A stretch of DNA of 64,000 bases from Malacoraja senta (Eukaryota): NCBI GenBank assembly GCA_038087875.1, contig CM075995.1:8434001-8498000 (forward strand). Direction: 5' to 3'. This document shows positions 726-64,000 of this stretch, piece by piece. The notes beneath the pieces were generated by a model. The model did no database searches. It was not told where the DNA came from and was given only the letters and a program-made list of their open reading frames with translations. A program made the translations under genes and the position numbers. The first letter of the stretch is position 1; each line of letters opens with the position of its first letter.

Positions 726-812
726 CAATGCTGTGAACTATATTCAGCACTCTGTACCTTCCCCTTTGCTCTTACCTTGCCCACACCGGCCAACACACGT
801 CCCAGCTACAGC

Positions 813-1388
813 AGGTAGACACAAAATGCTCAACGGGACAGGCAGCATCTTTGGAGAGAAGGAATGGGCGACGTTTCGGGTCGAGACACTTCTTCAGACT
901 GATTTCAGGGGAGTGGGCGGGACACGAAAAGAATATAGTTGGAGACAGTAAGACTGGTGGGAGAACTAGGAAGGAGGAGAGGGTGGAGAGAGAGAGAGGG
1001 AAAGCAAGGGCTGTTTGAGAAGTCATCGTTCATACCACTGGGGTGTGAGCTACCCAAGCAAAATATGAGGTGCTGTCCCTCCAATTTGCGCTGGGCCTCA
1101 CTCTGACAATGGAGGAGGCCCAGGACAGAAAGGTCAGATTGGGAATGGGAGGGGGAGTTGAAGTGCTGAGCCACCGGGAGATCAGGTAGGTCAAGGCGGA
1201 CTGAGCGGAGGTGTTCAGTGAAACGATCACCGAGCCTGCGCTTGGTCTCGCCCCCAATGTACAGGAGTTGACACCTGGAACAGCAGATGAGGTTGCAAGT
1301 GAACCTCCGCCTCTCCTGAAAAGATTGTCGGGGTCCTTGGATTGAGTCGAGGGGGAAGATAAAGGGACAGGTTTTGCATCTCCTGCTA
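813..1388 (-). mobile_element. Penelope-like element 3' fragment (GIY-YIG endonuclease end plus pseudo-LTR with hammerhead core)
   Basis: Minus strand encodes CSRCQLLYIG..ETKRRLGDRFTEHLRSVR...PVAQHFNSPSHSQSDLSVLGL...RKLEGQHLIFCLGS.HPSGMN, followed by CTGAAGA-stem-GAAACGTC at 870-897. Confidence 0.9.
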
Positions 1389-5943: not shown

Positions 5944-6375
5944 TCGTCTGCTGTCTGTACGTGAGACAGACACAAAATGCCAGAGTAACTCAATGGGTCA
6001 GGCAGCATCACCGGAGAAATGGAATAGGTGACATTTCAGGTCGAGACTCTTCAATCCGAAACGCCACCCATTCCTATTCTCCAGAGCTGCTGCCTGTCCC
6101 GCTGAGTTACTACAGCATTTTGTGTCTGTCTATGGTGTAAACCAGCATCTACAGTTCCTTCTTACATATGCTGTCTGAGCGGAGCTTGTGTGTTCTCCCC
6201 GTGACCTGCGTGGGTTTTCTCCGGGTGCTCTGGTTTCCTCCCACACTCCAAAGACGTGCGGGTTTGGAGTTTAATTGCCTTCGGTAAAAATTATCCCTAG
6301 TGTGTAGTATTGTGCTGGTGTACATGGTGATCACTGGCCGGCGGGCACTGTGTCTGTGCTGTATCTCTAAACTAA

Positions 6376-12095: not shown

Positions 12096-12904
12096 CTGGA
12101 AAGGAAAGAGAAGGAAGTGCAGATGCCGGTTTAAACCGAAGATAAGACACAAAATGCTGGAGTAACTCAGCGGGACAGGCAGCATCTCTGGAGAGAAGGA
12201 ATGGTCTGAGGAAGGTTCTCAACCCGTAACGTCACCCATTCCTTCTCTCCAGAGATGCTGCCTGTCCCGCTGAGTTACTCCAGCATTTTATGTCTATCCA
12301 AGGAAAAAAGACTTGACATTCCTTTAATATTAGGGAAAGACCAAATCTTAACATTGACGACATATTGCAATAAAATTCACCTACCGCCGATCAGTAATGG
12401 TCACATCTAAGAAAACAGATATTTATTTTTCTCCGTGTACCAACTCCCGACATACAGCACCCGTAATTAGGTTCGAACCCGAGTCTCTGACACTGTAAGG
12501 TAGCGACTCCACAATCTGCCTCAGAGGGCGGTGGAGGCCGGTTCTCTGGATGCTTTCAAGAGAGCTAGATAGGGCTCTTAAAAATAGCGGAGTCAGGGGA
12601 TATGGGGAGAAGGCAGGAACGGGGTACTGATTGTGGATGATCAGCCATGATCACATTGAATGGCGGTGCTGGCTCGAAGGGCTGAAGCCTCCTCCTGCAC
12701 CTATTGTCTATTGTCTATTGGAGGAACAGCACCTTATATTTTGCTTGGGCAGCAAACAACCCAGTGGTATGACTTCTAACTTCAAGTAACCCTTGCTGTC
12801 CCTCACTCTTCATCCCTCCCCCACCCTAGTTTTCAGACGATTTTGACTGTCCTGATTAAATATTACTGATTGTATTGCCTCGTTGTCACCTTATTATCAA
12901 TTTA

Positions 12905-14318
12905 CACGAAGGAATTAAAAGTAACATCTCCAAGTTTGCGGATGACACAAAGCTGGGTGGCAGTGTGAGCTGCAAGGAGGATGCTATGCGGCTGCAGGGT
13001 GACTTGGATAGGTTGGGTGAGGGGGCAGATGCAGTATAATGTAGATAAATGTGAGGTTATCCACTTTGGTGGCCAGAACAGGAAGGCAGATTATTATCTG
13101 AATGGTGTCAGATTAGGAAAAGGGGAGGTGCAACGAGACCTGGGTGTCCTTGTTCAACAGTCACTGAAAGTAAGCACGCAGGTACAGCAGGCAGTGAAGA
13201 AAGCGAATGACATGTTGGCTTTCATTGCGAGAGGATTTGAGTTTAGGAGCAAGGACGTCCTCCGACATTTGTACAGGGAGACCGCATCTGGAGTATTGTG
13301 TGCAGTTTTGGTCTCCTAATTTGAGGAAGGACATTCTTGCTATTGAGGGAATGCAGCGTAGGTTCACCAGGTTAATTCCCGGGATGGCGGGACTGTCATA
13401 TGCTGAGAGAATGGGTCAACTGGGACGCTTATTTATTCTACATTTTCCTTGATCTCTCGTTTTCACACCTTACCCTTCCATATCTCCAAGAAGGAACTGC
13501 AGATGCAGGAACAATCGAAAGTAGACAAAAGGGGTGGAATGGGTAGCGTTTTGGGTCGAGACCCTTCTTCAGAAGGATCTCGACCCGAAACGTCACCCAT
13601 TCCTTCTCTCCAGAGATGCTGCCTGTCCTGCCGAGTTACTCCAGCATTTTGTGTCTGTCTTTAGCAACATTTGACGTCCCTCCTCATCACAAACGTATCA
13701 CTCTTCTTTAAAAATACCCATTGTCTCTATTGCCCCGTCAAAATTGCATTACGTTATGGCCTACGTAATACAAATAGTGTTCCTCAATTCATCTATCCTA
13801 ATTTGAGGAAGAACATTCTTGCTATTGAGGGAGTGCAGCGTAGGTTTACAAGGCTAATTCCCGGGATGGCGGGACTGTCATATGCTGAGAGAATGGAGCA
13901 GCTGGGCTTGTACACTCTGGAGTTTAGAAGGATGAGAGGGGATCTCATTGAAACATATAAGATTGTTAAGGATTTGGACACGCTAGAGGCAGGAAACATG
14001 TTCCCGATGTTGGGGGAGTCCAGAACCAGGGGCCACAGTTTAAAAATAAGGAGTAAGCCATTTAGAACAGAGACGAGGAAACACTTTTTCTCACAGAGAG
14101 TGGTGAGTGTGGAATTCTCTGCCTCAGAGGGCGGTGGAGGCAGGTTCTCTGGATGCTTTCAAGAGAGAGTTAGATAGGGCTCTTAAAAATAGTGGAGTCA
14201 GGGGACGGCAGGAACGGGGTACTGATTGGGGATGATCAGCCATGATCACATTGAATGGCAGTGCTGGCTCGAAGGGCCGAATGGCCTACTCCAGCACCTA
14301 TTGTCTATTGTCTATTGT
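12905..14318 (+). mobile_element. CR1 fragments (12905-13425 and 13795-14318) separated by a palindromic element and unique DNA
   Basis: KFADDTKLGG...NVDKCEVIHFG and RKNILAIEGVQRRFTR through the tail. Confidence 0.9.
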
Positions 14319-14917
14319 CAATCACATTTTATCCCTTTTGCATAATGGAAATAGTGTTATAGCAAAACTGCCTGTGTGATACTAAGTTTATAAATGATAG
14401 GAGCAGAATTAGGCCATTAGGCCCATCAAATCTACTCCGCCATCAAGTCTACTCCGCCATTCAACCGTGGCTGAGCTATCTCTCCCTCCCAACCCCATTC
14501 TGCTGCCTTCTCCCCATAACCCCTGACACCCGTACTAATTTAATCAATAATCTAAGGTAGACAAAAATGCTGGAGAAACTCAGCGGGTGAGGCAGCATCT
14601 ATGGAGCGAAGGATCACATTGAATGGCGGTGCTGGCTCGATGGGCCAAATGGCCTACTCCTGCACCTATTGTCTATTGAAATAGGGGACGTTTCGGGTCG
14701 AGACCCTTCTTCAGATAATCAATAATGTAGCTGTCTCTGCCTCGAAAACATCATCAAAACATCATTCCTAACTGTCACTCTATGCGTCATTCCTAAATGT
14801 CACAACTGTCACTGTGTGTCATGTTGTCACTTGCGGGCAGAGCACCAAGGCAAATTCCTTGTATGTGAATAGTGGGCCAATAAACGTATTCATTCATTCA
14901 AATAATGATGGTCTTAC

Positions 14918-26299: not shown

Positions 26300-26991
26300 C
26301 ACAGAGTGCTGGAGTAAGTCAGCGGGTCAGGCAGCATCTGTGGAGAACATGGATAGGTGACGTTCACAGAGTGCTGGAGTAACTCAGCGGGTCAGGCAGC
26401 ATCTGTGGAGACATGGATAGGTGACGTTTCACAGAGTGCTGGAGTAACTCAGCGGGTCAGGCAGCATCTGTGGAGACCATGGATAGGTGACGTTCACAGA
26501 GTGCTGGAGTAACTCAGCGGGTCAGGCAGCATCTGTGGAGAACATGGATAGGTGACGTTTCACAGAGTTCTGGAGTAACTCAGCGGGTCAGGCAGCATCT
26601 GTGGAGAACATGGATAGGTGACGTTTCACAGAGTGCTGGAGTAACTCAGCGGGGTCAGGCAGCATCTGTGGAGAACATGGATAGGTGACGTTTCACAGAG
26701 TGCTGGAGTAACTCAGCGGGTCAGGCAGCATCTGTGGAGAACATGGATAGGTGACGTTTCACAGAGTGCTGGAGTAACTCAGCGGGTCAGGCAGCATCTG
26801 TGGAGAACATGGATAGGTGACGTTTCACAGAGTGCTGGAGTAACTCAGCGGGTCAGGCAGCATCTGTGGAGAACATGGATAGAGACGTTTCCACAGAGTG
26901 CCGGAGTAACTCAGCGGGTCAGGCAGCATCTGTGGAGAACATGGATAGGTGACGTTTCACAGAGTGCTGGAGTAACTCAGCGGGTCAGGCA
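26300..26991 (+). repeat. 66-bp tandem minisatellite (about 10.5 copies) derived from the Penelope pseudo-LTR arm
   Basis: Unit cacagagtgctggagtaactcagcgggtcaggcagcatctgtggagaacatggataggtgacgttt. Confidence 0.97.
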
Positions 26992-29569
26992 AGCATGTCC
27001 TCCAGAGATGCTGCCTGACCCAATGAGTTACTTCGGCAGGTTTTGTCATTTGTTTGGGTCCAGTTTGTACAACACCATAATTTATTTAACCTCTTCCTCC
27101 TGCACAGGCCAGCATTGCAACGTGTGGATCTGTGCATAAACCCTCAATGGGACATTCGCGGATGGAGGAATCTCTGTTGACATTTCAGATCCTGGCGCAA
27201 ATCCAATATCAATTTTCAAAAGCTCCAAGTCTCAACCCGAAACGTCACCCATTCCTTCTCTCCAGAGATGCTGCCTGTCCCGCTGAGTTACTCCAGCATT
27301 TTGTGTCTGCCCAAGTCACAGAAAAATGGTTGAAGAACCATTTAAATAAATCACATGGTAGACAAAAACGCTGAGAAACTCAGCGGATGAGGCAGCATCT
27401 ATGGAGCGAAGGAAATAGGCAACGTTTTGGGCCGAAACCCTTCTTCAGACTATAAATTACATTTTACTTGGGGGAAAAAAAAGTAACTGCCTGACCGGCG
27501 GAGTTACCCAGCACTTTGTGTCTATCTTTGGTTTAAACCAGCGTCTGCAGTTTCCCTTCCTACACACTGTGGTCAACCTCTTATGCACCGGTTGCAAAGC
27601 CTCCACATCCTTCCTGTAACGGGTCGACCAGCACTGCACGCAACACTCCAAATGCCGCCTACCCCACAGTTTTCATGTAGAGCTGCAAAAATGATGTTTT
27701 AATCGTCCTGAAAGCAAAGCATCTGCCCAATCAAATTTTAAAAAACCAAAATCCTTCAGGAATTGTTTCAATGACATTTTCTAAAATGCTGCACCTGATC
27801 TGAGGAAAGACATTCTTGCCATAGAGCGAGTACAGAGAAGGTTCACCAGACTGATTCCTGGGATGGCAGGATTTTCATATGAAGAAAGACTGGATAGACT
27901 TGGCTTGTACTCGCTAGAATTTAGAGATTGAGGGGGATCTTATAGAAACTTACAAATTCTTAAGGGGTTGGTCAGGCTAGATGCAGGAAGATTGTTCCCG
28001 ATGTTGGGGAAGTCCAGAACAAGGGGTCACAGTTTAAGGATAAGGGGGAAGTCTTTTAGGACCGAGATGAGAAGGCAGGTACAGGATCTGAGTTGAATGA
28101 TCAGCCATGATCATATTGAATGGCGGTGCAGGCTCGAAGGGCCGAATGGCCTACTCCTGCACCTATTTTCTATGTTTCTATGTTTCTATAAAGAGACCAC
28201 GTCAAAATAGTGGCCTGTTCAGTGTGCTGTACTGACCTGGGCGATGGTGCTTATGAACGGGAATGGTTTTGCTGAGATATATGCAAAAGATGCACCTCGC
28301 TTGTACCTTGGTACATGGCGTGGGGGGAACTCCCGTGAGGGGGGGGGGGGGAAGAGAAGCGTGGGGGTGCAGCAAAGGAGGACCAAGTCAGTGGATATAT
28401 TCAAGGCAGAGATAATAATAATAATAATAAAATAAATACTTTATTGATCCCCTCAGGGAAATTCAGATGTCCAGAAGCCCAACAACCAACAAACCCACAC
28501 ATTCAGAATGAAAGCAGACAAAACCAGAAGACTGTGTCCCCAGAACCAGGGGCCGCAGTCTTTGAATAAAGGGGAGGCAATTTAAGACTGAGGTGAGAAA
28601 AAACTTATTCTCCCAGAGAGTTGTGAATTTGTGGAATTCCCTGCCACAGAGGGCAGTGGAGGCCAAGTCACTGGATGGATTTAAGAGAGAGTTAGATAGA
28701 GCTCTCGGGGCTGGTGGAATCAAGGGATATGGGGAGAAGGCAGGCACGGGTTATTGATTGGGGACGATCAGCCATGATCACGAATTGCGGTGCTGGCTCG
28801 AAGGGCTGAATGGCCTCCTCCTGCACTTATTTTCTATGTTTCTATGTTTCTAAAAAATACATAAATTACAATATGGACAATACCTGAACGCAATAAATAC
28901 TTAAAAAGACCCAATAATTAACTATTAAAAATGCAAAGCATCCCCATACAGCCTAGCGGTCAGTATTATAAAATCTAATGGCTGCAGGGGTGAAGGATCT
29001 CCTCAACCGCTCTGTTCTCCAGCGCAGGGAGAGGAGATTCTTGATAAGTACGGGTGTCAGAGGTTATGGGGAGAAGGCAGGAGAATGGGGTTAGGAAGGA
29101 AGAGATAGATCAGCCGCGATTGAGTGGCGGAGTAGACTTGATGGGCCGAATGGCCCAATTCTACTCCTATTCCTTATGACCCGTCATGGGTAACCCTGTC
29201 GGCGCCCTTTATGTGGCTCCTCTTTACATACCTTGGGTACGTACAACAAAGAATATCACTGTGACCCCTCACTTGAGACAATAAAGAGGTGGGAAGATTG
29301 CAACCTTCACGTGGTCCGCCCTGTTCCAACGAATGCAATCAACCTGACGTGCACAATCAAATAAGATCAAATAGAACAAGTTGTCCTACAACTTTAGGCT
29401 GTGCGCGCCGTACGCAAGAAGAAGAAGACAATAAAGACTTCATTCATTTAAGCTATTGAACCGTTGAGCAAAGGTTTCATTAAAAAAGCATGAGGATATT
29501 TAATAGCTATAATTAAATATTAATTTAATAGCTAAAAAATAAACAATATCATCCATTTGAAAGACTTAC

Positions 29570-29677: not shown

Positions 29678-30483
29678 CTGAAAGGAAAACAAATGTACAT
29701 CCTGCGTCAATATAGTCATCGGGTGATACAGTGTGGAAACAGGCCCTTCGGCCCAACTTGCCCACACCGCCCAACAATGTCCCAGCTACACTAGTCCCAC
29801 CTGCCCGCGTTTGGCCCATATCCCTCCAAACCTGTCCTATCCATGTACCTGTCTAACTTCCAATTTCCGGTAGCCCTTGCTGTCTCCTCCCCTTCTCAGC
29901 TCTCCTTCAGCCCTCGGGCTCCTCCTCTTCCTTTTTCCTTTCTTCTCCCCCCCCCCACCATACATCAGTCTGAAGAACGGCTTCGGCCCGAAACGTTGCC
30001 TATTTCCTTCGCTCCATAGATGCTGCTGCACCCGCTGAGTTTCTCCAGCACTTTTGTCTACCTGTCTAACTGTTTCTTAAAGGATGGGATAGTCCCTGCC
30101 TCAACTACCTACAGCTCGTTCCATACACCCACCACCCTCTGTGTCACCCCTCAAGTTCCTATTAAATCTCCCCCCCCCCCCCCCACCCCCCGCCACATCT
30201 TAAATCCAATTCTTCAAATCGACAAAGATATTATATCAATTAAATTTCCAGGATTCTTTGCACATGTGGAATATCTTTCATGGAAAACTAAACATGCGTG
30301 ATTCAAAGTGGCAAGACTCATCGAAGAGGTACTTCAATTCACAATTTAAAATAGTGGTGCATTCATTGAAATGGTTTGAAAAGTGCAGCATGAAAACAGG
30401 CCCTTCGGCCCACCTAGTCCATGCCCATAATCGACCACCCATTCACACTAGTTCCATGTTATCCCTCTTTCACATCTACTCCC

Positions 30484-32037: not shown

Positions 32038-32075
32038 ATGACTTCCCTGGTCTTTTCGACAACAACCTAGGCAAG

Positions 32076-34862
32076 TTGCCTGTGTCCTACAAGATTACTA
32101 TTGACCCCGATGTGACACCCGTAATTCGAGCCCCGCACAGATTGTCATTTGCCATGACTGACAGGGTTCACTCTATGCTGAAGGACATGGTCTCCAAAGG
32201 CGTAATTGAAGCAGTCAGTGACCCCGCCGACTGGGTCTCAACCATGATTGCCACAGTCAAGAAGGGAAAGGATGAAATCCGCCTGTGCATTAATCCAAAA
32301 GACCTGAACACTGCCATTAAGCGCCCGCACCATCCCATGAAGACAGTAGAGGATGTTGCAGCAAAGATCGGAACGGCCACCCTATTTTCCGTCCTAGATG
32401 CAAAGAACTCATTCTGGCAGATACCGCTGGACAAGAGGTCATCAAACCTCACCACATTTGCCACCCCATTCGGCAGATTTAAGTTTCTGAGAATGCCATT
32501 CGGGATCAACTCTGCCAGCGAAGTCTTCCAAAGAACTATGGAGCAACTATTCGAGGGTCTGCCTTGTGCCATTATTGTCGATGATATTCTTGTCTATGGC
32601 AAGGACGCGGTGGAACACAACCACAATCTCAGGCTCATTTTGGAGCGTGCTGTCAAGATCAACCTCAAGCTCAATCCTGACAAGTGCAAGTTCAGGGTTC
32701 CAGTGGTCTCCTATGTCGGCCACATCTTCACCCCTGACGGCCTCAAACCGGATCCGAAGAAGACTTCTGCCATCACAGAAATGCCTGCACCCACTGACGT
32801 GAAAGGCCTACGTTTCCTGGGCATGGTAAACTATCTCGGAAAGTTCATACCTAACCTCAGCGAATTAAGCTCCACATTGCGGCAGCTGACAAAAAAGGAC
32901 ACTGCATGGTCATGGTTCCAGCAACATCAGGATGCCTTCGATGTTCTGAAATCAAAACTGACCAGTGCACCGACCCTGACTTTTTTCGACCTGAAACGTC
33001 CGGTGGTGATCACCTGCGATGCCTCGAAATTCGGGCTTGGCGCAGCCTGCCTGCAACCGTCTGATGATGGCACCCTACTACCTGTCGCGTATGCCTCTCG
33101 CACCATGACCGACACGGAGCAGCTCTACGCGCAAATCGAAAAGGAACTGCTGGCGGTCGTCTTTGCCTGCTCCAAATTCCACGACTTCGTCTATGGCAAC
33201 ACGTTCATGGTTGAGACGGACCACCAACCACTGGTGACAATCTTGAACAAGCCTATCCACGCCGCCCCAGCTCGTTTGCAGCGCATGATGATGCAGCTGC
33301 AGCGGTACGACTTCTCTATTACCTACAAAAAGGGCAAGGACATGCATGTTGCTGACACACTCTCTCGTGCCCCTCGAACATCTTGCGAACAACACCCACA
33401 CGAACGGGAGAATTTCACGGTTCTCGGTGTCGGTCTAATCTCCAGCAAGCAACTGCGCACCCTGGCCGCGCACACTGCTAAGGATGATACGCTTCAAGCC
33501 CTCTCGTCCATCATCAAGACAGGCTGGCCAGACAAACAATCCAACACGCCCACAGAGGTGCAGCCGCACTTCTTGGTCCGCGATGAACTGGTGGTTCAGG
33601 ATGGTGTGGTCGTCAAGGGCCACAAGGTAGTTGTACCTGCATCGCTACAAGACGAATACTTCAAAGAGGTACACAGCGGTCACCCAGGAGCCGACTCCAC
33701 ACTGGCACGCGCCCGGGATCTGTTCTACTGGCCTGGAATGGCCACGTACATCCGGGACCGCGTAGCCTCCTGCCCCACTTGCAACAATCTTGCGCCTCAT
33801 CAGCAGCGGCAACCCCTTCTGCAACAACCTCCACCAGCATTGTCTTGGTCGTCGCTGGCTGCGGACATTTTCGAATGGTGCGGTAAGCACTACCTCGTTC
33901 TGGTCGACTCGTACTCCAACTGGTTTGAACTTGACCAACTTACCTCCCTCACGTCGGTGATGGTCATCAGGAAGCTGAAAAGACATTTCTCAGACCATGG
34001 CATTCCTGTTATTCTGAGAACCGACAATGGTCCACAGTTCACCAGCCACTTGTTCAAGCTTTTCGCTGACCGATGGAACTTCCAGCACGTCACAAGCAGT
34101 CCCGAGTATCCACAGAGTAATGGACTCGCTGAACGCGCTGTCAGAAGCGCCAAGCACTTGCTGGAGGGAGCGCGCATTTCAAAGTCTGACGTTTATCTCG
34201 ATCTACTGAATCTCAGAAACATCGCAAGAGACGGCATCTTGGGGTCACCAGCACAGCGGCTGCTGTCAAGGGCGACAAGGTCTCCGGTCCCCATCGCACA
34301 ACAGCAGCTGGTTCCTCGGGTGTTGAAGCCCGCCACTATCCAGCAACGTCTCCAAGAGAAGCACGATACCCAGAAACGGTCATACGACAGCTCCAGCAGA
34401 CCACTCCAGCCCCTACTGCCGGGCCAGGTCGTCCGTACGAACTCCAACTGGTCATTCTCGTCTGGGCGTTGTTGTGCGCCCGACTTGATGAGCCGCGATC
34501 GTACCTTGTGGACTGTGAGGGAGCGGTTTACCGGAGAAGTCGACAACACCTGCTTGCTGTGAAGGAGCCCCGACCGCCGCCTGCCGATCCATATGCTCCG
34601 CCGCTCCAGTTCCAGCCGCCTTCCGCAATGTCTCCCGCCCGTCCCCGCATGCCTGGCACTCCCCCCACGTCTATCGGTCTCCAATAACCACGGGGTTTCA
34701 CCCACCGCATGTTTCCCCCCTCGGTCACCACAATCCTCTCCCGTGCGATTTTCACCTTCAGCCTCTCCGCCTAATCCTTCAGTTGAGGGAGGGGATGGTT
34801 GGGTCCGCACGCGTTCGGGCCGTGTTAGTAGACCACCAGACAGGTATGGCGAGTATGTTTAA
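32076..34862 (+). pseudogene. Gypsy pol (RT, RNase H, integrase), frameshifted near 34435
   Basis: RMPFGINSASEVFQ, IVDDILV, CDASKFGLGA, YAQIEKELLAVVFAC, TDHQPL, integrase H-H-C-C and TDNGPQF...SNGLAERAV; C-terminal TRSGRVSRPPDRY. Confidence 0.96.
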
Positions 34863-35106: not shown

Positions 35107-36136
35107 CTCCCTACCTACGATGAGGCGATTAACAGAGGCCAACTAACTGACCTACAAACTTGTACGCCTTTGGATGGAGGGAGGAAACTGGAGCAAAGGG
35201 TGGTGGGTGTATGGAACGAGCTGCCAGAGGAGGTGGTTGAGGCCGGGACTAACCCAACGATTGAGAAACAGTTACACATGGATAGGACAAGTTTGGAGGG
35301 ATATGGACCAAGCGCAGGCAGGTGGGACTAGCACGGCCGCTAGGACATGTTGGGCCGAAGGGCCTGTTTCCACATTGTAAGACGCGATGACTCGGAGAAA
35401 AGCTGGACACAGGGAGAACGTGCCAACTCCACACAGACAGGCAGAGGTTGTCCCTAGTATGAAGGATAGTGCTTGTCTACGGGGCGAAGAGGCAGTGGGC
35501 CAAAGGGCCTGTTTCCACGCTGTATCTCTAAACTAAAATTGATTGTAATCATTTACGGAGATAATTTACAGCAAAAAGAGAACTTCACTTTACCTCAGTA
35601 CATGTGACAACAAAGAATAATGGAACATTAGAAAATAGTCTGTGACTGCTGGGGTTACCAAGGCATTTTTATCGGGAGTTATTAAACGCACATAAATACA
35701 CTAATATTAAAGAACGGTGATTTAAAACTCCATACATTATTTGTTGCGTGTGCAGCATGACGGGTGTCAAGGGTTATGGGGAGAAGGCAGGAGAATGGGA
35801 TTAGGAAGCAGAGATAGATCAGCCATGTGTAAGAAAGAACTGCAGACGCTGGTTTAAATCAAAGGTAGAGACAAAATGCTGGGGTAACAGCATTTCTGGA
35901 GAGAAGGAATGGGCGACGTTTCGGGTCGAGGGTTTTTTTCAGACAGAAGGATTTCGACCATAAACGTCGCACATTCCTTCTCTCCAGAGATGTTGCCTCA
36001 CCCGCTGAGTTACCCCTGTATTTTGTGTCTACCAGAGATCAGCCATGATTGAATGGCGGGAGTCGATGGGTCGAATGGCCTGATTCTACTCCTATAACTT
36101 TTATAAGGCATTCAATAGAATATACCCCACACTTAC

Positions 36137-36236: not shown

Positions 36237-36342
36237 CTGGATGTGTAAAACAGGGAGATGGGATTAATACCGAGGAATACCACCATTCCCAGCGGAATAT
36301 TACACTGTAGGTCAAACACCAAGTACGACGTTTGAGGTGTTT

Positions 36343-36569
36343 CACAGAGTGCTGGAGTAACTCAGCGGGTCAGGCAGCATCTCTGGAGAACATGGATAGG
36401 TGACGTTTCACAGAGTGCTGGAGTAACTCAGCGGGTCAGGCAGCATCTGTGGAGAACGTGGATAGGTGACGTTTCACAGAGTGCTGGAGAAACTCAGCGG
36501 GTCAGGCAGCATCTGTGGGGAACGTGGATAGGTGACGTTTCACAGAGTGCTGGAGTAACTCAGCGGGTC
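36343..36569 (+). repeat. Same 66-bp minisatellite (about 3.5 copies)
   Basis: Units start at 36343, 36409, 36475 and 36541. Confidence 0.95.
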
Positions 36570-36645
36570 GGCACGGACTCAGTGGGCTGAAGGTCCTGTT
36601 TCCGCGCTGTATCTCTAAAGTAAGTAAATGGAAGGGTTTTCTTAC

Positions 36646-37745: not shown

Positions 37746-38050
37746 GGCACGGTGGCGCAGCGGGTAGAGTTGCTGCCTCACAGCGCCAGTGACCCGGGTT
37801 CCATCCTGACTACGGGTGGTCAGCACAGAGTTTGTACGTTCTCCCCGTGACCACGTGGGTTTTCTCCGGGTGCTCCGGTTTCCTCCCACACTCCAAAGAC
37901 GTACAGGTTTGTGGGCTAATTGGCTTTGGTCTAATTGTAGAATTGTCCCCTAGTGTGTGCAGGACAGAGTTGGTGTGCGGGGATCGCTGGTCGGCACGGA
38001 CTGGGTGGACCGAAGGGCCTGTTTCCGCGCCGTGTGTCTCTGAAACTAAA
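37746..38050 (+). mobile_element. HE1-like tRNA-derived V-SINE
   Basis: tRNA-like head GGCACGGTGGCGCAGC...GGTTCCATCC, V-domain GGTTTCCTCCCACA and CR1-type tail GAAGGGCCTGTTTCC...AAACTAAA. Confidence 0.88.
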
Positions 38051-38089
38051 GCGGACTGACCATTTTACGACGAAATAGATACGACTTAC

Positions 38090-38256
38090 TGGGCGGGGCA
38101 TTGAGAAACCTGAGATGTAGACTTTCCACTTCCTCATCGACGGGCATGCTCAGCAAACCCCACCTCTGGCCCTTGTGAGTTGGCACCATCTTCACGCACA
38201 CGTCTCTGTTCCCTGAAGCTCTCACTCCATCCAACAGGCTAGCCATCAAGGAGTCT
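38090..38256 (-). CDS. DNAJC13: DNAJC13 coding exon
   Basis: [55 protein letters not shown]; ttccag|A and A|GTAAG; 167 bp. Confidence 0.97.
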
Positions 38257-38648
38257 CTGGAAATAATCATAGAAACACAGAACAGTTGCAGGAGTAGGCC
38301 ATTTGGCCCTTCGTGCCAGCACCCGCCATTCAATAGACAATAGACAATAGACAATAGGTGCAGGAGTAGGCCATTTGGCCCTTCGAGCCAGCACCGCCAT
38401 TCAATGTGATCATGGCTGATCATCCCCAATCAGTACCCCGTTCCTGCCTTCTCCCCATATCCCCTGACTCTGCTATTTTTAAGAGCCCTATCCAGCTCTC
38501 TCTTGAAAGCATCCAGAGAACCTGCCTCCTCCGCCCTCTGAGGCAGAGAATTCCACACTCACCACCAAGTGTTTCCTCGTCTCCGTTCTAAATGGCTTAC
38601 TCTTTAATCTTAAAATATGGCTTACTCCTTATTCTTAAAATATCATAC

Positions 38649-38740
38649 CTTTCTGTCGACGAGTATTTAGAAATCTGCCCTTTGATGTATTCGATATCAA
38701 AGCGCTGAGGATTTTCAGCATCGAGCACTAGAGCAAAGAT
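38649..38740 (-). CDS. DNAJC13: DNAJC13 coding exon
   Basis: [31 protein letters not shown]; acag| and AG|GTATG; 92 bp. Confidence 0.96.
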
Positions 38741-38930
38741 CTGTGAGGAGAGGGTGGAAGGAATGAAGAAACAATGAATCATTTCACCAACAATAGAAAC
38801 CGGTTACAATCACGTCGGAAGGTTAAAACTGAACAAAAACCAACTGCAAAATCCGTAAGGTGAGCCACTCCCTCGTTAACCAAAAACCTGAAAGGGGATG
38901 TACCAAATTAGGCTCAAGGCCATTGAAGGG

Positions 38931-39517
<587 letters not shown>

Positions 39518-40029
39518 AAAAAAGCTATTGCAAAACCCATTCGCCGTTCCCTTCTTTAACAAAACCCCCGAAAAGGGATCGACCAAATTAAGCTCGCAGG
39601 CAGGTTATTGTTACAAACAGTGACGGCTATTTAGGAACTAGTTAGGGTTCCCTTCATTTCCTACGTATGAAACTGTACTTTTTGTTCCTCGTTACAAACA
39701 AGCTGGTTAACTCTTGTTGGGAACTCCTGGAACAAAGGGGGAACAACATTTTTCTTGGACCCCAGGAAGGTTCCTCAGGAACAAGGATCTACCGGAGTCG
39801 CTGCCTCAAAAAGGCAGCCAGCATCATCAGAGACCCACAACACCCTGGCCACACACTCATTTCACTCCTGCCCATCGGGAAGAAGGTACAGGAGCCTGAA
39901 AACTGTCACGTCCAGGTTCAGGAACAGCTGCTTCCCCACAGCCATCAGGCTATTAAACACTACAACCTCAAATAAGCTCTGAACTACAGTAGACTATTAT
40001 TTTTATTATTGCACTATTATTGTGTTTTT

Positions 40030-40250
40030 TTGTGTGTACGTATGTGTGCGTGGCTGTGAACGTGTGTGCGTACGTGCGTGTGTGAGTATACGTGTGTGCG
40101 CGAGTACGTGTGTGTGCACATGTGCGTATGTGTGTACGTATGTGTGTACATGAGTGTGTGTGTACGTATGTGTACTTGAGTGAGTGTACGTGTGTATGTG
40201 TGTACAATGTGTGTATATACAGTATATATATATATATATATATATATAAT
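40030..40250 (+). repeat. Degenerate (TG/TA)n microsatellite in a Rex1-type 3' UTR
   Basis: Directly visible. Confidence 0.93.
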
Positions 40251-40340
40251 ACACACTTTCTCGTTTATTATATAGTTTACAGTGTACTATGTTTCCATAT
40301 CGTGTTGTGCTGCAGCAAGTAAGAATGTCATTGTTCTATC

Positions 40341-41881
40341 TGTATTGTATTGTATTGTATATCTTTATTGTCATTTCCTGAGTATTCACATACCCAGAGG
40401 AAACAAAAAAACGTTCCTCAACCAGTGTCCATTTCAGTGTGCAATAAAAAATAAATAGACGTAAAAATACATATATCATGAACAAATTAACACTCTACTC
40501 TACTAAACATCAACAGGCGTTCCGATCGGCAGCGGCACGACAGTGGCTCTGCTGCAGTGTGTCCAGGTTGGTGGTTGGTGCACGATACTTTGGCAGGGGA
40601 CAAAGTCCGTTTATCAGTCTTATAACCTGCGGGAAGAAGCTGAGGAGCATCCTGCTGGTTTTGCACCTAATGCTCCGGTACCTCTTCCCAGATGGCAGGA
40701 TGGAGAATATATGATGCGATGGGTGGTAGGGGTCTTTGATGATGGAGATGGCTCTGCTGATACATCTCTTCCTGTATATGTCCAGCAGGAATGGGAGTGG
40801 AGCACCAATAATCCTGCTGGCGGTCTTCACAATCCTGTCTAGTTGGTGCCGTTCGTACGCCTTGCAGCTCCTGAACCAGGAAGTGATGCCGTAGGTTAAT
40901 GTGCTCTCGATTGTCCCCCTATAAAAAGTTCGTAGGTGTGTAGTGGGGAGACCTGCTTTACGTAGTCTTCGGAGAGGGTGTAGTCACTGCTGGGCTCTCT
41001 TGACCAGTGCTGTGGTGTTGGTCGTGGACGTCAGGTCATCTGACAGGTGGAGTCCTAGGAACTTCACGCTGTTGACCCTTTCCACATCAGCTCCATCGAT
41101 GTGCAGAGGTGTATGGTGTTGTTTTCCCACCCTCCTGAAGTCAACCACCATCTCCTTAGTTTTTCCCACGTTGAGAATGAGGTTGTGGGATTTGCACCAT
41201 CCTGTGAGCAGCTCCACCTCCATCCTGTACGCCGACTCATCATTGTCACTGATGAGACCCACCACTGTTGTGTCATCAGCGAACTTGTTGATGAAGTTGT
41301 TGTTGAGTCTAGCAGTACAGTCATGTGTTAGCAGACTAAACAGCAGGGGGCTTAGGACACAGCCTTGGGGCGAGCCAGTGCTCACGGCTATGGTTTTTGA
41401 TGTCCTACTGCCCACCCTGACTGTCTGCTGCCGTTGCGATAGAAAGTTCAGGACCCAGTTACATGTGCCAGCATCAACCCCCAATAGCTCCAACTTCTCC
41501 ACCAACTGCTGCGGAATGATTGTATTAAAAGCAGAGCTGAAGTCTATGAAGAGGATCCTGGCATAAGTATTTTTCCGATCAAGGTGTGACAGTACGAGGT
41601 TCAGTGTTGTTGAGACTGCGTCCTCTGTGGATCGGTTGGCTCTGTAGGCGAACTGCAGTGGGTCTAGGTCGGCAGGTAGACTATTTTTGATATGCTGCAT
41701 AACCAGTCGCTCAAAACACTTCATTACTATGGGTGTTAGAGCCACTGGTCGAAAGTCATTATGGCAGGCTGGGTTTGGTTTCTTCAGGACAGGGACGATG
41801 GTGGCACTCTTAAGACAGTTGGGCACTACTGCCTGGCTGAGTGAGATGTTAAAAATGTCTGTGAAGACATCTTTCAGTTGC
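40341..41881 (-). mobile_element. Rex1/Babar-clade LINE, 5'-truncated, nested in an older Rex1-type tail
   Basis: [61 protein letters not shown]; one stop at 40984-40986; (CAATA)n tail; tctatctg on both sides. Confidence 0.93.
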
Positions 41882-42859
41882 ATCTATCTGGGACACATCT
41901 ATCTGGGACACATGACAATAAAACACTCTTGACTTGACATCAATGCTGTAAAGGGGCTTAGAGTTATAAAGCTTTGGCCCAATTCGTCCACACTGGTCAA
42001 GATGTTCCATCTAAGCTTTAGCCCCATTTTGCCCCATGGTCCTTTATAATCGGCTGCTGTCTGTCCCGCTAAGTCACTTCAACAGTTAGTGTCTATTCAT
42101 GAACCCGTCCAAGTGTGTTTTAAATGCAATTCTATTACCAGTTTGGTAATAGAATTACCAAGCCACCATGTTTGGTCGCGCTAGACGCATGCAGTCGCGA
42201 CCAAACGGATTTGATCCTGACTACGTGTGCTGTTTGTACGGAGTTTGCACGTTCTCCCCGTGACCTGAGTGGGTTTTCTCCGAGATCTCTGGTTTCCTCC
42301 CACACTCCAAAAGACGTGCAGGTATGTAGGTTAATTGGCTTGGTGTAAATGTAAAAATAGTGTAAATATTCGGGGATCGCTGGTCGGCGCAGACCCGGTG
42401 GGCCGAAGGGCCTGTTTCAGCGCTGTATCTCCAAACTAAACAAAACTAAAATTCAACCTCTCAAAGTGCGACACCTCACAATTGCCTAGACAGCAGACAA
42501 ACTGGCCGTTCACCTCATTGAGCCCATTGAGCTTGTGTTGATCGTTAAGCACCCCCACCATTTGGTCACACAATCCCATCAAATCTCCATAGATGCCGCC
42601 CTTCCGTACACCGGGAGACAGTGGCCCAGACACCCTAGCAACCCACACACCTTTGGGATGTTGAAGGAAATCAAGGCACCCGAGGGAAAACCCACTCCAT
42701 CACTGGGAGAACGTGCAAACTCCACACTGACAGAACGTGCAAAAACTCCACACTGACAGCAGCACAGGCAAGGACTGGAGCCATGGGGTGGCAGCTGTGT
42801 TCGTTGTGTTATTCTTGATCATTGCAAGCTATCGGATACCTTAAACAATTCCAGGTGGG

Positions 42860-43043
42860 CAAAAATGCTGGAGAAACTCAGCGGGTGAGGCAGCATCTGT
42901 GGAGCGAAGGAAATAGGCGACGTTTCGGGCCGAAACCCTTCTTCAGATTGGGCGGTCTGAAGAAGGGTTTCGGCCCGAAACGTTGCCTATTTCCTTCGCT
43001 CCATAGATGCTGCTGCACCCGCTGAGTTTCTCCAGAATTTTTG
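42860..43043. mobile_element. Palindromic Penelope-derived element with two divergent hammerhead cores
   Basis: About 88-bp inverted arms around an 8-bp spacer. Each arm begins CTGAAGA-A-GGGT-TTCG-GCCC-GAAAC-GTY. Confidence 0.8.
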
Positions 43044-43046
43044 TGT

Positions 43047-43500
43047 ACAGTCCAAGGAACTGCTCTGCCCAGGACAAGAAGGCTCTGCAGAGAGTAGTTC
43101 GTTCGGCCGAACGCACTGTAGGAACTACATTCGCCCCCCTGCAGGACGTATACATCAGAAGATGCAGTTCCAGAGCCAACAAGATCGTGGGGGACCCCTT
43201 CCACCCCAGCAACGGACTGTTCCAGCTGCTACGGTCAGGCAAACACCTCCGTTGCCATGCTGTGAGAACGGAGAGGTTGAGAAGGAGTTTCTTCCCAGAG
43301 GCCATTAGGACTGTAAACTCCTATCTCACCAGGGACTAACTAACTGAACCAATTTACTGTTGTTTTTTTTCCCCCCCCCACAAATATGTAGTTACTGATT
43401 CTGTTCCATTCTGTTTTGTTGTGTTTTGCACAATCCGCAAGCGTTGCCACTTTTCATTTCACTGCACATCTCGTATGCGTATGTGACGAATAAACTTGAC
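43047..43500 (+). mobile_element. Rex1-type LINE 3' fragment
   Basis: DKKALQRVVRSAERTVG...DPFHPSNGLFQLLRSGK...RRSFFPEAIR; a related copy lies at 8895-9305. Confidence 0.88.
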
Positions 43501-44826: not shown

Positions 44827-47098
44827 CTGGAAAATGAAAAGTTGCAGAAGTAACAAAATCCTTGAGGATTAAATTTATTATTTGCGCATGTCGATATCGA
44901 GGTTCAATGAAAAGCGTTGTGTTGCAAGCTAGTTAATAATACTACACATCAATACAATAGACAATAGGTGCAGGAGGAGGCCATTCGGCCCTTCGAGCCA
45001 GCACCTCCATTTCACACAGAGAGTGGTGAATCTCTGGAACTCTCTGCCACAGAGGGTAGTTGAGGCCAGTTCATTGGCTATATTTAAGAGGGAATTAGAT
45101 GTGGCCCTTGTGGCTAAAGGGATCAGGGGGTATGGAGAGAAGGCAGGAACGGGATACTGAGTTGGATGATCAGCCATGATCGTATTGAATGGCGGTGCAG
45201 GCTCGAAGGGCCGAATGGCCTACTCCTGCACCTAATTTCTATGTATCTATGTATTCAATGTGATCATGGCTGATCATCCCAATCAGTACCCCGTTCCTGC
45301 CTTCTCCCCATATCCCCTGACTCCGCTATTTTTAAGAGCCCTATCTAGTTCTGTACAATTCTGGTCGCCAAATTATAGGAAGATGTCAACAAAATAGAGA
45401 GAGTACAGAGGAGATTTTACTAGAATGTTGCCTGGGTTTCAGCACATAAGTTACAGAGAAAGGTTGAACAAGTTAGGTCTTTATTCTTTGCAGCGCAGAA
45501 GGTTAAGGGGGGACTTGATAGAGGTCTTTAAAATTATGAGAGGGGATAGACAGAGTTGACGTGGATAAGCTTTTTCCATTGAGAGTAGGAAGATTCAAAC
45601 AAGAGGACATGATTTGAGAATTAAGGGACAGAAGTTTAGGGGTAACATGAGGGGGAACTTCTTACTCAGAGAGTGGTAGCTGTGTGGAATGAGCTTCCAG
45701 TGGAAGTGGTTGAGGCAGCTTCGATTTTATCATTTAAAAATACATTGGATAGGTATATGGATGGGACTAGGTGAGAGTAAGTGTTCGGCACGGACTAGAA
45801 GGGCCGAGATGGCCTGTTTCCGTGCTGAAATTGTTATATGGTTATATGGTTAAGTCTACTCCGCCATTCAATCATGGCTGATCTATCTCTCCCCTCTCAA
45901 CCCACTCTCCTGCCTTCACCCCATAACACCTGACTCCCGTACTAATCAAGAATTTGTCAATCTCCACCTTAAAAATATCCACTGACTTGGCCTCCACCGC
46001 CGTCTGTGGCAATCAATTCCACAGATTCGCCACTCTCCTGACTAAAGACATTCCTCCTCGTCTCCTTTTGGAATGTACGTCCTTTTTTTTGTGAGGCTGT
46101 GCCCTCGGGTCCTAGACTCTCCCACTCGTGGAATCATCCTCTCCACATCCACTCGATCCAGGTATATTTACAGGGTTTATTTTGAATTGCTTTCCAATCA
46201 GATAATACAGATAAAAGGGGGAGGGGAATAGACAAAAGACAATAGATAGGTGCAGGAGTAGGCCATTCGGCCCTTCGAGCCGGCACCGCCATTCAATGTG
46301 ATCATGGCTGATCATCCCCAATCAGTACCCCGTTCCTGCCTTCTCCCCATATCCCCTGCCTCCGCTATTTTTAAGAGCCCTATCTAGCTCTCTCTTGAAA
46401 GCATCCAGAGAACCTGCCTCCACCTGAGGCAGAGAATTCCACAGACTCACCACTCTCTGTGTGAAAAAGTGTTTCCTCATCTCCGTTCTAAATGGCTTAC
46501 TCCTTATTCTTAAACTGTGGCCCCTGGTTCTGGACTCCCCCAACATCGGGAACATGTTTCCTGCCTCTATTTTTAAGGTGGAGATTGACAAATTCTTGAT
46601 TAGTAAAAGCAAATGGGCTGAAACCGAGAGGTACGGGTTTAGGAGGTGTACCGAGATACAGGGAAAGGTTTTGTCGGTCAACACGCAACAAAAGCTTTTC
46701 ACTGTTCCTCGGTACAGGTGACGATAAACTAAGCGGTTGTTGCCGCATGTACCGAGATACAGTGAACAGCTTTCTGTTGCAGGTGATCCAAACTGATCAG
46801 TTCACACTACACACCAATAGAGTCAAGTCAAACTCAAGTACAGTAGGTAGAGCAAAGGGGGTCAGGCAGCACCTCTGGAGAGAAGGAACGGGTGACGTTT
46901 CGGGTCTGAAGGAGGGTCACCACATGAAAAAGTCACCTCCACTTTTCCCCCAGAGATGCAGCCTGACCCGCTGTTGCTTTCCCATTTACCACACAAAACC
47001 CACCAGGCCCACCCAGCGGAATGAATATTGACTTCTCTCATTTCAAGTCCCCCTCCCCCCACCGAGTCAGTCTCAAAACGTCACTTATTCCTTTTGTC

Positions 47099-47820
47099 CA
47101 GAGATGCTGCCTGACCCGCTGAGTTTCTCCAGCACTCTGTGAAACGTCACCTATCCATGTTCTCCAGAGATTTACGAGATTGATCCCTGGGAAGGCGGGA
47201 CTGTCATATGAGGAAAGATTGAAAAAGTCTAGGCTTGTATTCACTGGAGTTTAGAAGGATGAGGGGGCATCTTATAGAAACATATAAAATTATAAAAGGA
47301 CTGGACAAGCTAGATGCAGGAAAAATGTTCCCAATGTTGGGGCGAGTCCAGAACCAGGGGCCACAGTCTTAGAATAAAGGGGAGGTCATTTAAGACTGAG
47401 GTGAGAAAAAACTTTTTCACCCAGAGAGTTGTGTATTTATGGAATTCCCTGCCACAGTGGAGGCCAAGTCACTGGATGGATTTAAGAGAGAGTTAGATAG
47501 AGCTCTAGGGGTCTGGTGGAGTCAAGGGATATGGGGAGAAGGCAGGCACGGCTTATTGATAGGGGACGATCAGCCATGGTCACAATGAATGGCGGTGCTG
47601 GCTCGAAGGGCCGAATGGCCTCCTCCTGCACCTATTTTCTATGTTTCTATGCTGCCTGACCCGCTGAGTTACTCCAGCACTCTGTGAAACGTCACCTATC
47701 CATGTTCTCCACAGATGCTGCCTGACCCGCTGAGTTACTCCAGCACTCTGTGAAACGTCACCTATCCATGTTCTCCACAGATGCGGCCTGACCCGCTGAG
47801 TTACTCCAGCACTCTGTGTC
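47099..47820 (-). repeat. Same 66-bp minisatellite, inverted and interrupted by a + strand CR1 3' fragment (about 47170-47650)
   Basis: Reverse-complement units at 47099-47168 and 47649-47820 flank the CR1 sequence. Confidence 0.9.
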
Positions 47821-50839: not shown

Positions 50840-53305
50840 GTCTCAGAGGAGACAAATAGGTTTTTTCCATTTAGTTTAGTTCAGAGATACAGTGAGATAC
50901 AGGAGCTGTGCCCTGTACATTTAAGATAATCTAACACTGCTATCTTGGCTGGCTCCTGTTTGACCATTGACCTTGTGAATCAGTAACCTACAGGAGGCTG
51001 AAGGTTGATTTGTACTTCGCATTCCTTTTAGCTTGTTTTAAAAATATATATACAGCGCTGAAACTGGCCCTTCGGCCCATCGAGCCCGCACTGAACGGTG
51101 CTCCCCACACCTTAACTACCCACCACACACCCGGGACTACTAACAATTGGCTTGGTAAATGTAATAGTGGATAGTGTAATATGCAGGGGTTGCTGGTCGG
51201 GCACGGCCTCGGTGGGCCGAAGGCCTGTCCGCACTGTATCTTTATCTCTAAACATTTACACCAAGCCAATCAACCTACAAACCTGCACGTCTTTGGAGTG
51301 TGGGAGGAAACCGAAGATCTCGGAGAAAACCCACGCAGGTCACGGGGAGAACGTACAAACTACGAAGAGACAGCACCCGTAGTCGGATGGAACCCGGGTC
51401 TCTGGGCGCCGTGAGGCAGCAACTCTACCGCTGCGCCACCGTGCCGGCCGTGACAATGAAGCTGAGGAAATATTATATAAATAGAACCGCTCGAATAGTG
51501 ACTTCTATATGGGCTGGGTAATTTGCAAAAGAAAAGCTTAAGGTTTTCCTGACTAAATAAAGTACGGGGAGTCACACAGGGAAAGATGAATCAAAGCATG
51601 GAGGCCTGAACCTGAACCGGCTTAGCTTAGTTTATTGCTTTGAGGCAATTGTATCGCTGGAGGAAATTGTATTTGGTATGATTGTGCTTGGAGAATGGAT
51701 AGCTGAATAGGGGCGTCTTCTTAGGCCAGAGGTCAACTCTTTTCTCTCTGGTACAATCTTAGGCTATGAGGTTTGTGCTGAGTTTGAGATAGAATTCAAG
51801 GCTGAGAGATAATAGGCCCTGTAGTTAGCCTTGGCTATGTTGAATTAGGATATATGTGAAGAGGAGTAGTTGCTTGGAGAAGAAGATAATTTGATTGATG
51901 GATTTGTTTATAGGAAGTCGAAGAAGCAGATGTAATTCTGAGTTGTGAATTTACGCTTTGTTCTGTAATATTTGTAAAAGACCTTGTAGTGAGATTGGAC
52001 ATCCAGCTACCAGATAGCAGGAAAGGGGCTCCAAATTAGAATTCAGTTTCTCCTGGTACCAAACACTTATTAACTAAGTTGACAGATTTACGACCCATGT
52101 ATGCTTGGTTGGGATGTGTATGGGTTTTGAACTTAGAAACTGTAATTCAGCAAACTTATATAATTAATGTTTTAAATACATATGTAATAGTGAAATTGTA
52201 GTAAAACAAATTATGAAATAATAATAATAATAATGAATTTTATTTACGGGCGCCTTATACCGAGGTGTCAAGGACACCTTACAGAGATTTATAGGAAACA
52301 TATAATCAGAATTTAAAAAATAAGTTATAAAGACCAATACACAAATCAGGGACAGAATTCCTTCCAAAAAGACAAAAAAAGAAAATCAGAAGCACAATTT
52401 GAGGAGAGAGCAGCGGCAACGAAACCGCGCCAGCGTCCACTCTCCCCTCCGACCGCCATCTTGAAATGTATTGTCTTAGTAGGAATGTAAACATTAGACA
52501 TAGAAATTGTTTAGATTTATAGAAATATCTTTCTTCTTGGTATGGGAAGTGTGTATGACGTGTGATCATTGTATTATATATGTATCTTATATTTTGAGGA
52601 GTGGTCTTTGATAATTGGGCCTACTGGGGTTTTGCTTTGTTGAAATAAAATAAGCAAAGTTATACCACAGGCAAAGGAAGGTTGTAAAGAGGCCAGGGAA
52701 GGGGGATCATGTGACTGATGTTGTAAATCACCAGAAGGACTCAGATGATTGGTTACTAGCTTGTCATACCCTCTGTATCTGAAATGTCTAATACCTATAT
52801 AAATGCCATGAGTTTCTATCAAAGTTATTCCTCTCTGGACCCGCCCCAGAGCATCAGCTCTGTGTTGGAAGGTTCAAGAGACTAGTCTCAGCTGAATAAA
52901 GAATCAATTTCAACAGCAACAAGTGTTTTGAGTCAAGTTGACGTTAGATTGACAAAAGAACTCAGTTTAACAAAGCATCGTTACTTTTTTGCATATCTTT
53001 CATTTATTGTTCTCTATCTCTCTACATCATCGTCTATATCTCTCGTTTCCCTTATCCCGAACTAGTCTGAAGACCCGAAACGTCGCCCATTCCTTCTCTC
53101 CAGAGATGCGGCCCACTGAATTACTCCAGCATTTTGTGCCTGCTCTAAGAAAGCTTTTGCAGGAAGGAACTGCAGATGCTGGTTTAAACCGATGATAGAC
53201 ACAGAGTGCTGGAGTAACTCAGCGGGTCAGGCAGCATCTCTGGAGAAAAGGCATAGTCCGGTTTAGTTTATTGTACCGAGGTAAAGTGAAAAGCTTTGTG
53301 TCAAG

Positions 53306-63708: not shown

Positions 63709-63746
63709 TAGGTCTGAAGAAGGGTTTCGACCTGAAACGTTGCCTA
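63709..63746 (+). ncRNA. Minimal type I hammerhead ribozyme motif (Penelope type)
   Basis: TAGGT-CTGAAGA-A-GGGT(TTCG)ACCT-GAAA-CGTT-GCCTA: 5-bp stem I, conserved core, stem II with UUCG loop and palindromic ACGT stem III. Confidence 0.72.
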
Positions 63747-64000
63747 TTTCCTTCGCTCCATTGATGCTGCCTCACCCGCTGAGTTTCTCCAGCAATTTTG
63801 TCTACCACCGTAGCCCACCAGGTCCTCACCGACCAGCGATCCCGGTACACTAAAGCCCCTGTCCCACTTACGTATCCTTGGCACGCTAATTACATGACGT
63901 CGTGGTCGCGTTGAGGCGCGACGGTCCCGCGAAGGACGCGCGCGACTTCATGCGTCCGCACAGCTGTCTGGAGCGCGTGACGTCATTTGAAGATGGACAC

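Follow-up and report, generated by a model that had tools for sequence, protein, structure and literature searches.

Introduction

The minimal hammerhead ribozymes of metazoan Penelope-like elements (PLEs) are characterized by a CUGANGA box, an extra base before the G10.1-C11.1 pair, a GAAA box, a palindromic 15.2-16.2 and no stem III, and most copies of these elements are solo truncated pseudo-LTRs (pLTRs; PMC4209133). Dual motifs on opposite strands, 100–700 bp apart, were reported for Schistosoma in the same work, the accessible part of which does not name cartilaginous fish among the hosts. Insertions of EN+ PLEs typically show an inverted arrangement, in which head-to-head pLTR pieces meet at short-overlap junctions, an outer TSD of 9–12 bp flanks the whole, and a tail of 30–40 bp is found on one arm (PMC3846280; 10.1101/2021.04.23.441226). 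The self-priming model published for such insertions invokes an antisense template (PMC3846280). The protein of the Anolis Poseidon element PAc, a predicted dimer, cuts and extends both DNA strands with uncut RNA as template, and the tail of the element is delimited by the two sites at which RT starts, both downstream of the hammerhead (PMC11167929). Animal non-LTR retrozymes are non-coding, pLTR-derived, hammerhead-bearing repeats arranged as head-to-tail tandems, every unit of which has a core, and can in principle dimerize and circularize (10.64898/2026.07.22.740005).

Here, we analyzed a palindrome at positions 42860–43043 of a 64,000-nt stretch of the genome of the skate Malacoraja senta (GCA_038087875.1, contig CM075995.1, 8,434,001–8,498,000, forward strand; hereafter the window). 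Its hammerhead cores share the listed sequence features of the metazoan PLE motif, as well as the prevalence of solo truncated pLTRs. They differ in having a stem II of 4 bp and, in the native context, a stem I of 2 bp followed by an internal loop, which is nearer to the 2-bp helix I of D. virilis than to the helix I of 4–5 bp (PMC4209133); at the palindrome itself, the minus core has just 1 bp available and the plus core 3 bp, and the cores abut. The inverted pairs in the window resemble the EN+ PLE insertions in all four respects named above. In contrast to these, they consist of two stubs of 60–130 nt without an ORF, their 5′ ends often lie at one point, and at least one pair has arms of two variants, a feature that the self-priming model does not predict (PMC3846280). 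The skate system is like PAc in its two putative tail-defining RT start sites downstream of the hammerhead and in the proposed cutting and extension of both strands on uncut RNA; the protein relatives have a Neptune-type linker and probably belong to a different clade, and several skate 3′ junctions have primer-template overlaps of 1–4 nt, whereas PAc was reported to start without homology (PMC11167929). Unlike the units of retrozymes, the arms are head to head with one sense core per strand, and the 66-bp arrays of the window have no core; in the one same-strand pair of the window (10447 and 10580), both cores are mutated.

Structure and motif are already known, and as an element the palindrome is ordinary. 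We interpret it as a minimal insertion of a skate Neptune-type PLE, assembled at integration from two short cDNAs, with a probability of about 0.78. The clustering of 5′ starts just before the core and the mixed-variant arms seem to be unreported: a search of mainly freely accessible literature gave no paper on mini-PLE palindromes in skates or sharks, none on PLEs priming from two ends and none on 5′ ends clustered at a hammerhead. Palindromes of this sort provide a large natural record of PLE integration.

Materials and methods

Arm positions were numbered from q1, the T preceding CUGA, which places the predicted hammerhead cut at q29/30. The copy set was curated by hand and comprised 31 copies; the three arrays with a 66-bp unit were not counted, nor was a stub of 7 nt near 10150. 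The 5′ starts were assigned by hand after alignment to native upstream sequence. Head-to-head copies within 10 nt of each other were scored as abutting pairs. The TSD scan covered 22 units and 300 random controls, among which a score of ≥9 was reached by 4, ≥7 by 18 and ≥5 by 101. Reads of a related organism (8707 mapped, approximately 6% of one polyA RNA run) were mapped with the copy at 29860–30062 (plus strand) as reference. A run search with 37900–43400 listed no RNA run containing this stretch; the RNA run used was of a relative covered by the same study as a DNA run that did contain it.

Results and discussion

Geometry and genomic setting of the palindrome

The arms, at 42860–42947 and 42956–43043, were 88 nt each and 94% complementary, with a spacer of 8 nt, in agreement with the inverted arms of about 88 bp given in a preliminary description of this DNA. 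The RNA fold of the palindrome reached −178 kcal/mol (z −23), and 0 of 200 shuffles were equally stable. The inner ends of both arms read CUGAAGA-A-GGGU(UUCG)GCCC-GAAA-CG-UH. The earlier identification as minimal hammerheads was borne out by the invariant core, stem II and the palindromic ACGU replacing stem III in both arms, as was the presence of a core on each strand (Table 1). Neither arm carries a tail, the left one having the short 3′ end, and the TSD scan found no outer TSD for the pair. The right arm adjoins a fragment of a different repeat, presumably L2-like. The host genes of the window are on the minus strand: the palindrome sits among exons of RME-8/DNAJC13 at about 24.0, 38.2 and 47.9 kb, and an exon of a twin-BRCT gene was located further left (7578–7856), with a 200-N gap in between.

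Table 1. Coordinates of the palindrome, its parts and related copies in the window (a dot marks features without a single strand).
Feature	Position	Strand	Description
Longest PLE fragment in the window	811..1382	-	GIY-YIG endonuclease end (broken frame), 3′ UTR rich in pyrimidines, core at 870-897, short 3′ end
Left arm of the 42860 pair	42853..42947	-	3′ pLTR stub, q1 to ~q94; CCTCA variant; GUC triplet
Spacer	42948..42955	.	8 nt; found in the 42860 pair alone
Right arm of the 42860 pair	42956..43048	+	3′ stub, q0/1 to ~q93; CTGCA variant; GUU triplet; no tail
Hammerhead core	42919..42946	-	Minimal; invariant bases and 4-bp stem II all kept; GUC
Hammerhead core	42957..42984	+	Minimal, intact; GUU
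Head-to-head pair (5964)	5958..6167	.	Tail on right arm alone; exact 9-bp TSD; no intact core
Head-to-head pair (12145)	12108..12298	.	Tail on left arm; left arm from q32; 7-bp TSD (weak)
Head-to-head pair (13488)	13486..13660	.	3-nt overlap joint; tail on left arm; no TSD found
Head-to-head pair (35828)	35828..36035	.	Tail on left arm; exact 12-bp TSD; cores mutated or truncated
Head-to-head pair (46850), the sixth abutting pair, absent from the preliminary description	46850..46920	.	q17 arm and short q0 stub; 3-nt overlap
Single stub	14553..14715	-	Starts at q1; exact 11-bp TSD; later split by another repeat
Single stub	27357..27451	-	Starts at q-1; 11-bp TSD with one mismatch
Longer copy of the 42860 subfamily	29860..30062	+	109 nt of native upstream sequence; 13-bp TSD
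Single stub	63712..63804	+	Starts at q0; 9-bp TSD; flank gives a 6-bp stem I

Origin of the arms in a Penelope-like element

Searches of the window with the arm gave 46 matches by BLAST and 43 by nhmmer. The match at 829–898 (82% identity over 71 nt) lies directly 3′ of a broken GIY-YIG-type frame, as the preliminary description had claimed in tracing the arm to the 3′ region of a GIY-YIG Penelope fragment; the core of this fragment has a stem II mismatch. The adjoining frame (1007–1390, minus strand) was 53–80% identical to cartilaginous-fish proteins. Its relatives (15 hits among 161 candidates) came from skate, ray and shark, with Leucoraja and Rhinoraja records scoring highest, and the proposed PLE origin was supported in that the best relatives were skate and shark PLE proteins. 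GIY-YIG was matched by three of the relatives, under the curated cut-off, and RVT_1 weakly by one; a Pfam search of the window's own frame gave no match.

A Cys-rich linker (CX2-5CxxC) precedes the endonuclease in four of the five relatives examined over their whole sequence (P0002, P0005, P0006 and P0011), and the PLE copy of the window ends inside this linker. Such a linker is common to Neptune and Nematis elements (10.1101/2021.04.23.441226). On the upstream side, the relative's contigs for the 42860 subfamily extended into the coding end described above, with 64 loose ends before 29859. Based on the protein relatives and this upstream coding end, the arm was assigned to the pLTR end of an EN+ PLE. 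At the level of sequence, the arms are best described as the 3′ end of a skate Neptune-type PLE, the linker being shared with Nematis. No full-length PLE was seen. Pattern scans had no hits in the viral, metagenome or prokaryote collections, a result that is uninformative for a fish repeat.

Several related features were observed alongside. In the Stegostoma gene model P0006, the C-terminus past the endonuclease ends in SLMKGLRPKRQ, in register with the window core, the translation of which is SLKKGFGPKRC-like; this read-through may hint indirectly that a shark element has the same hammerhead. Pieces of the PLE endonuclease also occur in gene models P0003, P0007 and P0013, whose names include receptor-transporting protein 3-like and neuromedin-U receptor 1, through either exonization or annotation fusion. 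Another PLE endonuclease end was found at 12717–12851 (plus strand); it has a different 3′ UTR, lacks a core and is cut off by another repeat.

Pairs, single stubs and their 3′ ends

Six abutting head-to-head pairs were present among the 31 copies; in 20,000 shuffles, their number averaged 0.04 and never exceeded 3. Within the window, their arms start at approximately q5/q19, q32/q0, q1/q6, q0/q6, q1/q0 (with the 8-nt spacer) and q17/q0, giving six distinct centers, three of which have overlaps of 1–3 nt. The tail is one-sided in four of the six. The 3′ ends of the copies fall at two points, ~q94 or ~q129, about 35 nt apart (24 copies aligned). Loose ends in the relative's reads agreed with these two points: there were 504 at 30062, mixed in sequence, and 2242 at 30063, which ran on into the 35-nt tail. 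Outer TSDs were exact in two pairs (9 and 12 bp) and weak in one (7 bp), and none was found for the other three (42860, 13488 and 46850). Single-arm stubs with their own TSDs outnumber the pairs.

In their arrangement, the pairs match the inverted-pLTR insertions published for rotifer PLEs (PMC3846280) and depicted as typical elsewhere (10.1101/2021.04.23.441226), here in the most reduced form. Of the two readings offered in the preliminary description, that of inverted-pLTR truncation products is supported by the one-sided tails, the outer TSDs and the differing centers. The other, a discrete hairpin family, was not supported because the centers differ in all six abutting pairs, stereotyped as the outer ends and many 5′ ends are. 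Those outer ends, the overall length of about 170–210 nt and the high copy number would suit a palindromic element that is discrete and non-autonomous, is copied from masters of its own and is mobilized by the PLE enzyme; given six centers for the six pairs of the window, several subfamilies, and single-arm stubs with their own TSDs that are commoner than pairs, we regard such an element as very improbable.

Only part of what had been described for five other hairpins held: they are inverted pairs, but a core on both strands was not retained, since at least one arm of each starts inside or beyond the core or has core mutations. Among the pairs, two intact cores occur at 42860 alone. The arms at 10036–10575 are separated by a spacer of 295 nt, both have tails and no TSD was found, so that they probably represent two insertions.

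Stubs were also arranged tail to tail, at 27230–27451 (46 nt apart, with TSD-like repeats on each of the two copies) and at 52975–53256 (13 nt apart). At the 3′ junctions at 3938, 14553, 30062 and 63804, the TSD overlaps the last 1–4 bases of the element, which suggests short primer-template pairing when RT initiates. Tandem arrays with a 66-bp unit were found in both orientations at 26300–26996 (10.6 copies), 36339–36573 (3.6 copies) and 47649–47818 (2.6 copies). Their unit comprises the same pLTR from GAAAC to ~q88, without CUGANGA and stem II. The arrays are a satellite that stems from the PLE end and lacks the ribozyme.

Position of the 5′ starts

The 5′ starts of the 31 copies lie at q-1 to q1 in 12, at q5–q75 in 15 and far upstream in three; the remaining one is ambiguous (q-4). 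For the 28 short copies, the clustering at q-1 to q1 had a P of about 1e-10 compared to uniform starts, and three of the starts are fixed by TSDs, at q1, q0 and q-1. RNA read depth of the relative increased 11-fold, from ~220 at 29950–29959 to ~2360 at 29970–29979, equally on both strands, and a probable DNA run showed the same step. A C-run of the reference just upstream may deepen the dip; RNA depth was still ~170–185 at 29880–29939. The loose letters upstream of the step were mixed, the 263 loose ends before 29968 agreeing at 0.34. At q-1, the RNA reads of the relative showed no pile-up of starts that would point to a transcription start.

The native sequence before the core forms a short pseudo-palindrome. 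At the 5′ start, two longer copies have the native sequence TCAGT, which we take to resemble a general initiator. The pLTR of a rotifer has an Inr-like TCACT, one letter from TCAGT (PMC3846280).

Cleavage by the ribozyme as the cause of the boundary would predict starts at q30, and just 3 of the 31 copies start at q32–34; as the cut lies 29 nt downstream, it is not the cause of the 5′ start. A splice acceptor was also considered. Three longer copies have a pyrimidine tract and AG directly before the core, and an intron of D. virilis ends at helix I (PMC4209133; PMC2377424). This cause was not supported, with no common upstream exon and with the low agreement of the 263 loose ends, a donor upstream of the reference lying outside the detectable range of the check. 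In view of the lack of a shared upstream exon, an RNA 5′ end with run-off cDNA is favored. A structural RT stop is a possible alternative.

Assembly of the head-to-head insertion

The arms of the 42860 pair differ at a dinucleotide, giving CTGCA in one (a state found in 3 of 27 arm matches) and CCTCA in the other (7 of 27). Both states are common in the reads of relatives. A further difference between the arms is in the cleavage triplet. A single cDNA that folded back on itself would not yield these differences, which points to two templates at 42860. The arms of the 5964 and 13488 pairs likewise look like different subfamilies; those of the 12145 and 35828 pairs look like the same template, and are equally explained by self-priming.

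Self-priming or fold-back on a single template, with the differences between arms arising later by mutation or through conversion with other copies, would be consistent with several features of these last two pairs, namely the 12145 arms being identical over 54 nt, their junction falling at the would-be closing point of stem I, and a private variant common to both 35828 arms, and also with the pseudo-palindrome before the native core. However, the tail is on one arm only in four of the six pairs, so that fold-back would need trimming of an arm, and it accounts poorly for two family variants at adjacent bases in the 42860 arms and for the subfamily differences at 5964 and 13488. We therefore consider it unlikely, though not markedly so.

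As the 42860 pair shows neither a TSD nor a tail and its 8-nt spacer is unexplained, it could also result from successive insertions or later rearrangement. Insertion of two single stubs one after the other, the later one immediately 5′ of the earlier and in opposite orientation, would accommodate the lack of an outer TSD, the spacer, the differing arm variants and the short 3′ ends of both arms, and by eye a 5-nt direct repeat surrounds the left arm alone. Matches of 5 nt are common by chance, as shown by the 101 of 300 controls with a score of ≥5, and abutting pairs occur far above chance, two of them being flanked by TSDs as units; these points make successive insertion at 42860 decidedly unlikely.

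Assembly from two short cDNAs is the reading we prefer. Both cut strands would each prime one cDNA, with the 3′ ends outward, and the middle ends would then be joined, often through an overlap of 1–3 nt; we rate this priming and central joining at even odds. The two 3′ points would correspond to the pair of internal sites at which RT starts and from which the PLE tail arises (PMC11167929). At 42860, the cDNAs would have been copied from two different RNA templates. Many cDNAs would stop at q-1 to q1 where the template RNA begins, and be run-off products, which is a tentative view that we hold at somewhat less than even odds. The hammerhead would be a passenger, uncut RNA being copied and the motif ending up locked in a duplex of about 90 bp. 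We infer that the 5′ start cluster and the mixed arms fit two separately primed run-off cDNAs.

A more specific scheme can be put forward, which as a whole is rather doubtful: the RNA would start 1–2 nt before the core, the 5′ ribozyme would be unable to cut for lack of a stem I, priming 94 or 129 nt downstream would yield a short run-off cDNA resembling the strong-stop DNA of retroviruses, and a dimeric RT-endonuclease would prime two of these, one per cut strand and each on its own RNA, and join them head to head. If true, the inverted pLTR and the one-sided tail would be explained without an antisense template. Any skate assembly would allow mixed-variant arms and the sharp 5′ start to be counted, and these features distinguish self-priming from two-end priming.

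In run X1 of the relative's reads, three joint rows from 30010 to 29979/29982 may be compatible with an inverted junction by a 5-nt overlap.

Integrity and predicted activity of the hammerhead cores

Rfam (E≤1) returned no hammerhead match, only generic miRNA-type hairpin matches below the gathering score; this is expected for a motif without stem III. All invariant bases are kept in 7 of 13 core-spanning copies and one is lost in the other 6 (one copy with a deletion left out), and 4 of the 13 combine the invariant bases with stem II and the ACGU dimer stem. A stem I of 6 bp is present in the 63713 copy alone. Stem covariation consisted mostly of one-sided U-A/U-G changes, its score being reached by 34 of 500 shuffles and the percentage paired by 108 of 500.

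Forcing a hammerhead fold within the palindrome cost 55–57 kcal/mol, and the unpaired probability of the core was 0.00. Once complete, the core is fully paired with the antisense arm in both directions of transcription, the antisense arm being transcribed first. As each transcript contains one sense core, the 42860 cores cannot dimerize in one RNA, and no dimer self-cleavage by the palindrome is predicted from the folding models. The suggestion that minus-strand cores could cut the introns of host pre-mRNAs was not sustained: the cores of the palindrome are fully paired, and in those at 870–897 and 14688–14714 stem II is mismatched or stem I is missing.

That the cores are active ribozymes cutting host introns, alone or as dimers, thus appears extremely improbable, even though 4 of the 13 core-spanning copies are fully intact, GUU and GUC are both cleavable triplets (PMC3138052, the accessible text of which yielded no comparison of rates for GUU) and the protein of one PLE activates that element's hammerhead in vitro (PMC11167929). 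In the sense-strand intronic cores, stem I is 0–2 bp, the two cores of the palindrome are on opposite strands, and 6 of 13 copies lack an invariant base. As far as the sources consulted report, minimal hammerheads are inactive as monomers and weak as dimers (PMC4209133), and 8 of 9 tested Xenopus dimers remained uncleaved (10.64898/2026.07.22.740005). No read ends piled up at the hammerhead cut site in the relative's RNA reads, which is weak evidence. By analogy with protein-assisted cleavage (PMC11167929), activity of the hammerhead in the parent element is plausible. Head-to-head joining silences the hammerhead, burying the motif rather than doubling it, and puts duplexes of about 90 bp into introns.

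Editing of the duplex from A to I was considered and rejected: the RNA run exceeded the DNA runs for A>G and T>C, but also for every other change.

Two further copies were of interest for their folds. The copy at 63712–63804 (plus strand) is situated in a CpG-rich stretch, and a hammerhead-like fold with GUU and a G-U closing pair lies within 0.5–1.4 kcal/mol of the minimum; modeling would make this copy the best candidate for cleavage. At 12108–12298, the inverted arm begins 2 nt past the predicted cut, and the core is in the loop of a stem of about 60 bp; this is the sole geometry that gives a long stem I, and the core there is mutated.

Other features of the window

An exact 99-bp tandem duplication at 23999–24197, a possible assembly artifact, overlaps the RME-8 coding frame. 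LTR-retrotransposon-like frames (protease, RT, RNase H and integrase, with an open frame of 873 aa) were located inside RME-8/DNAJC13 at 30937–34559, on the opposite (plus) strand.
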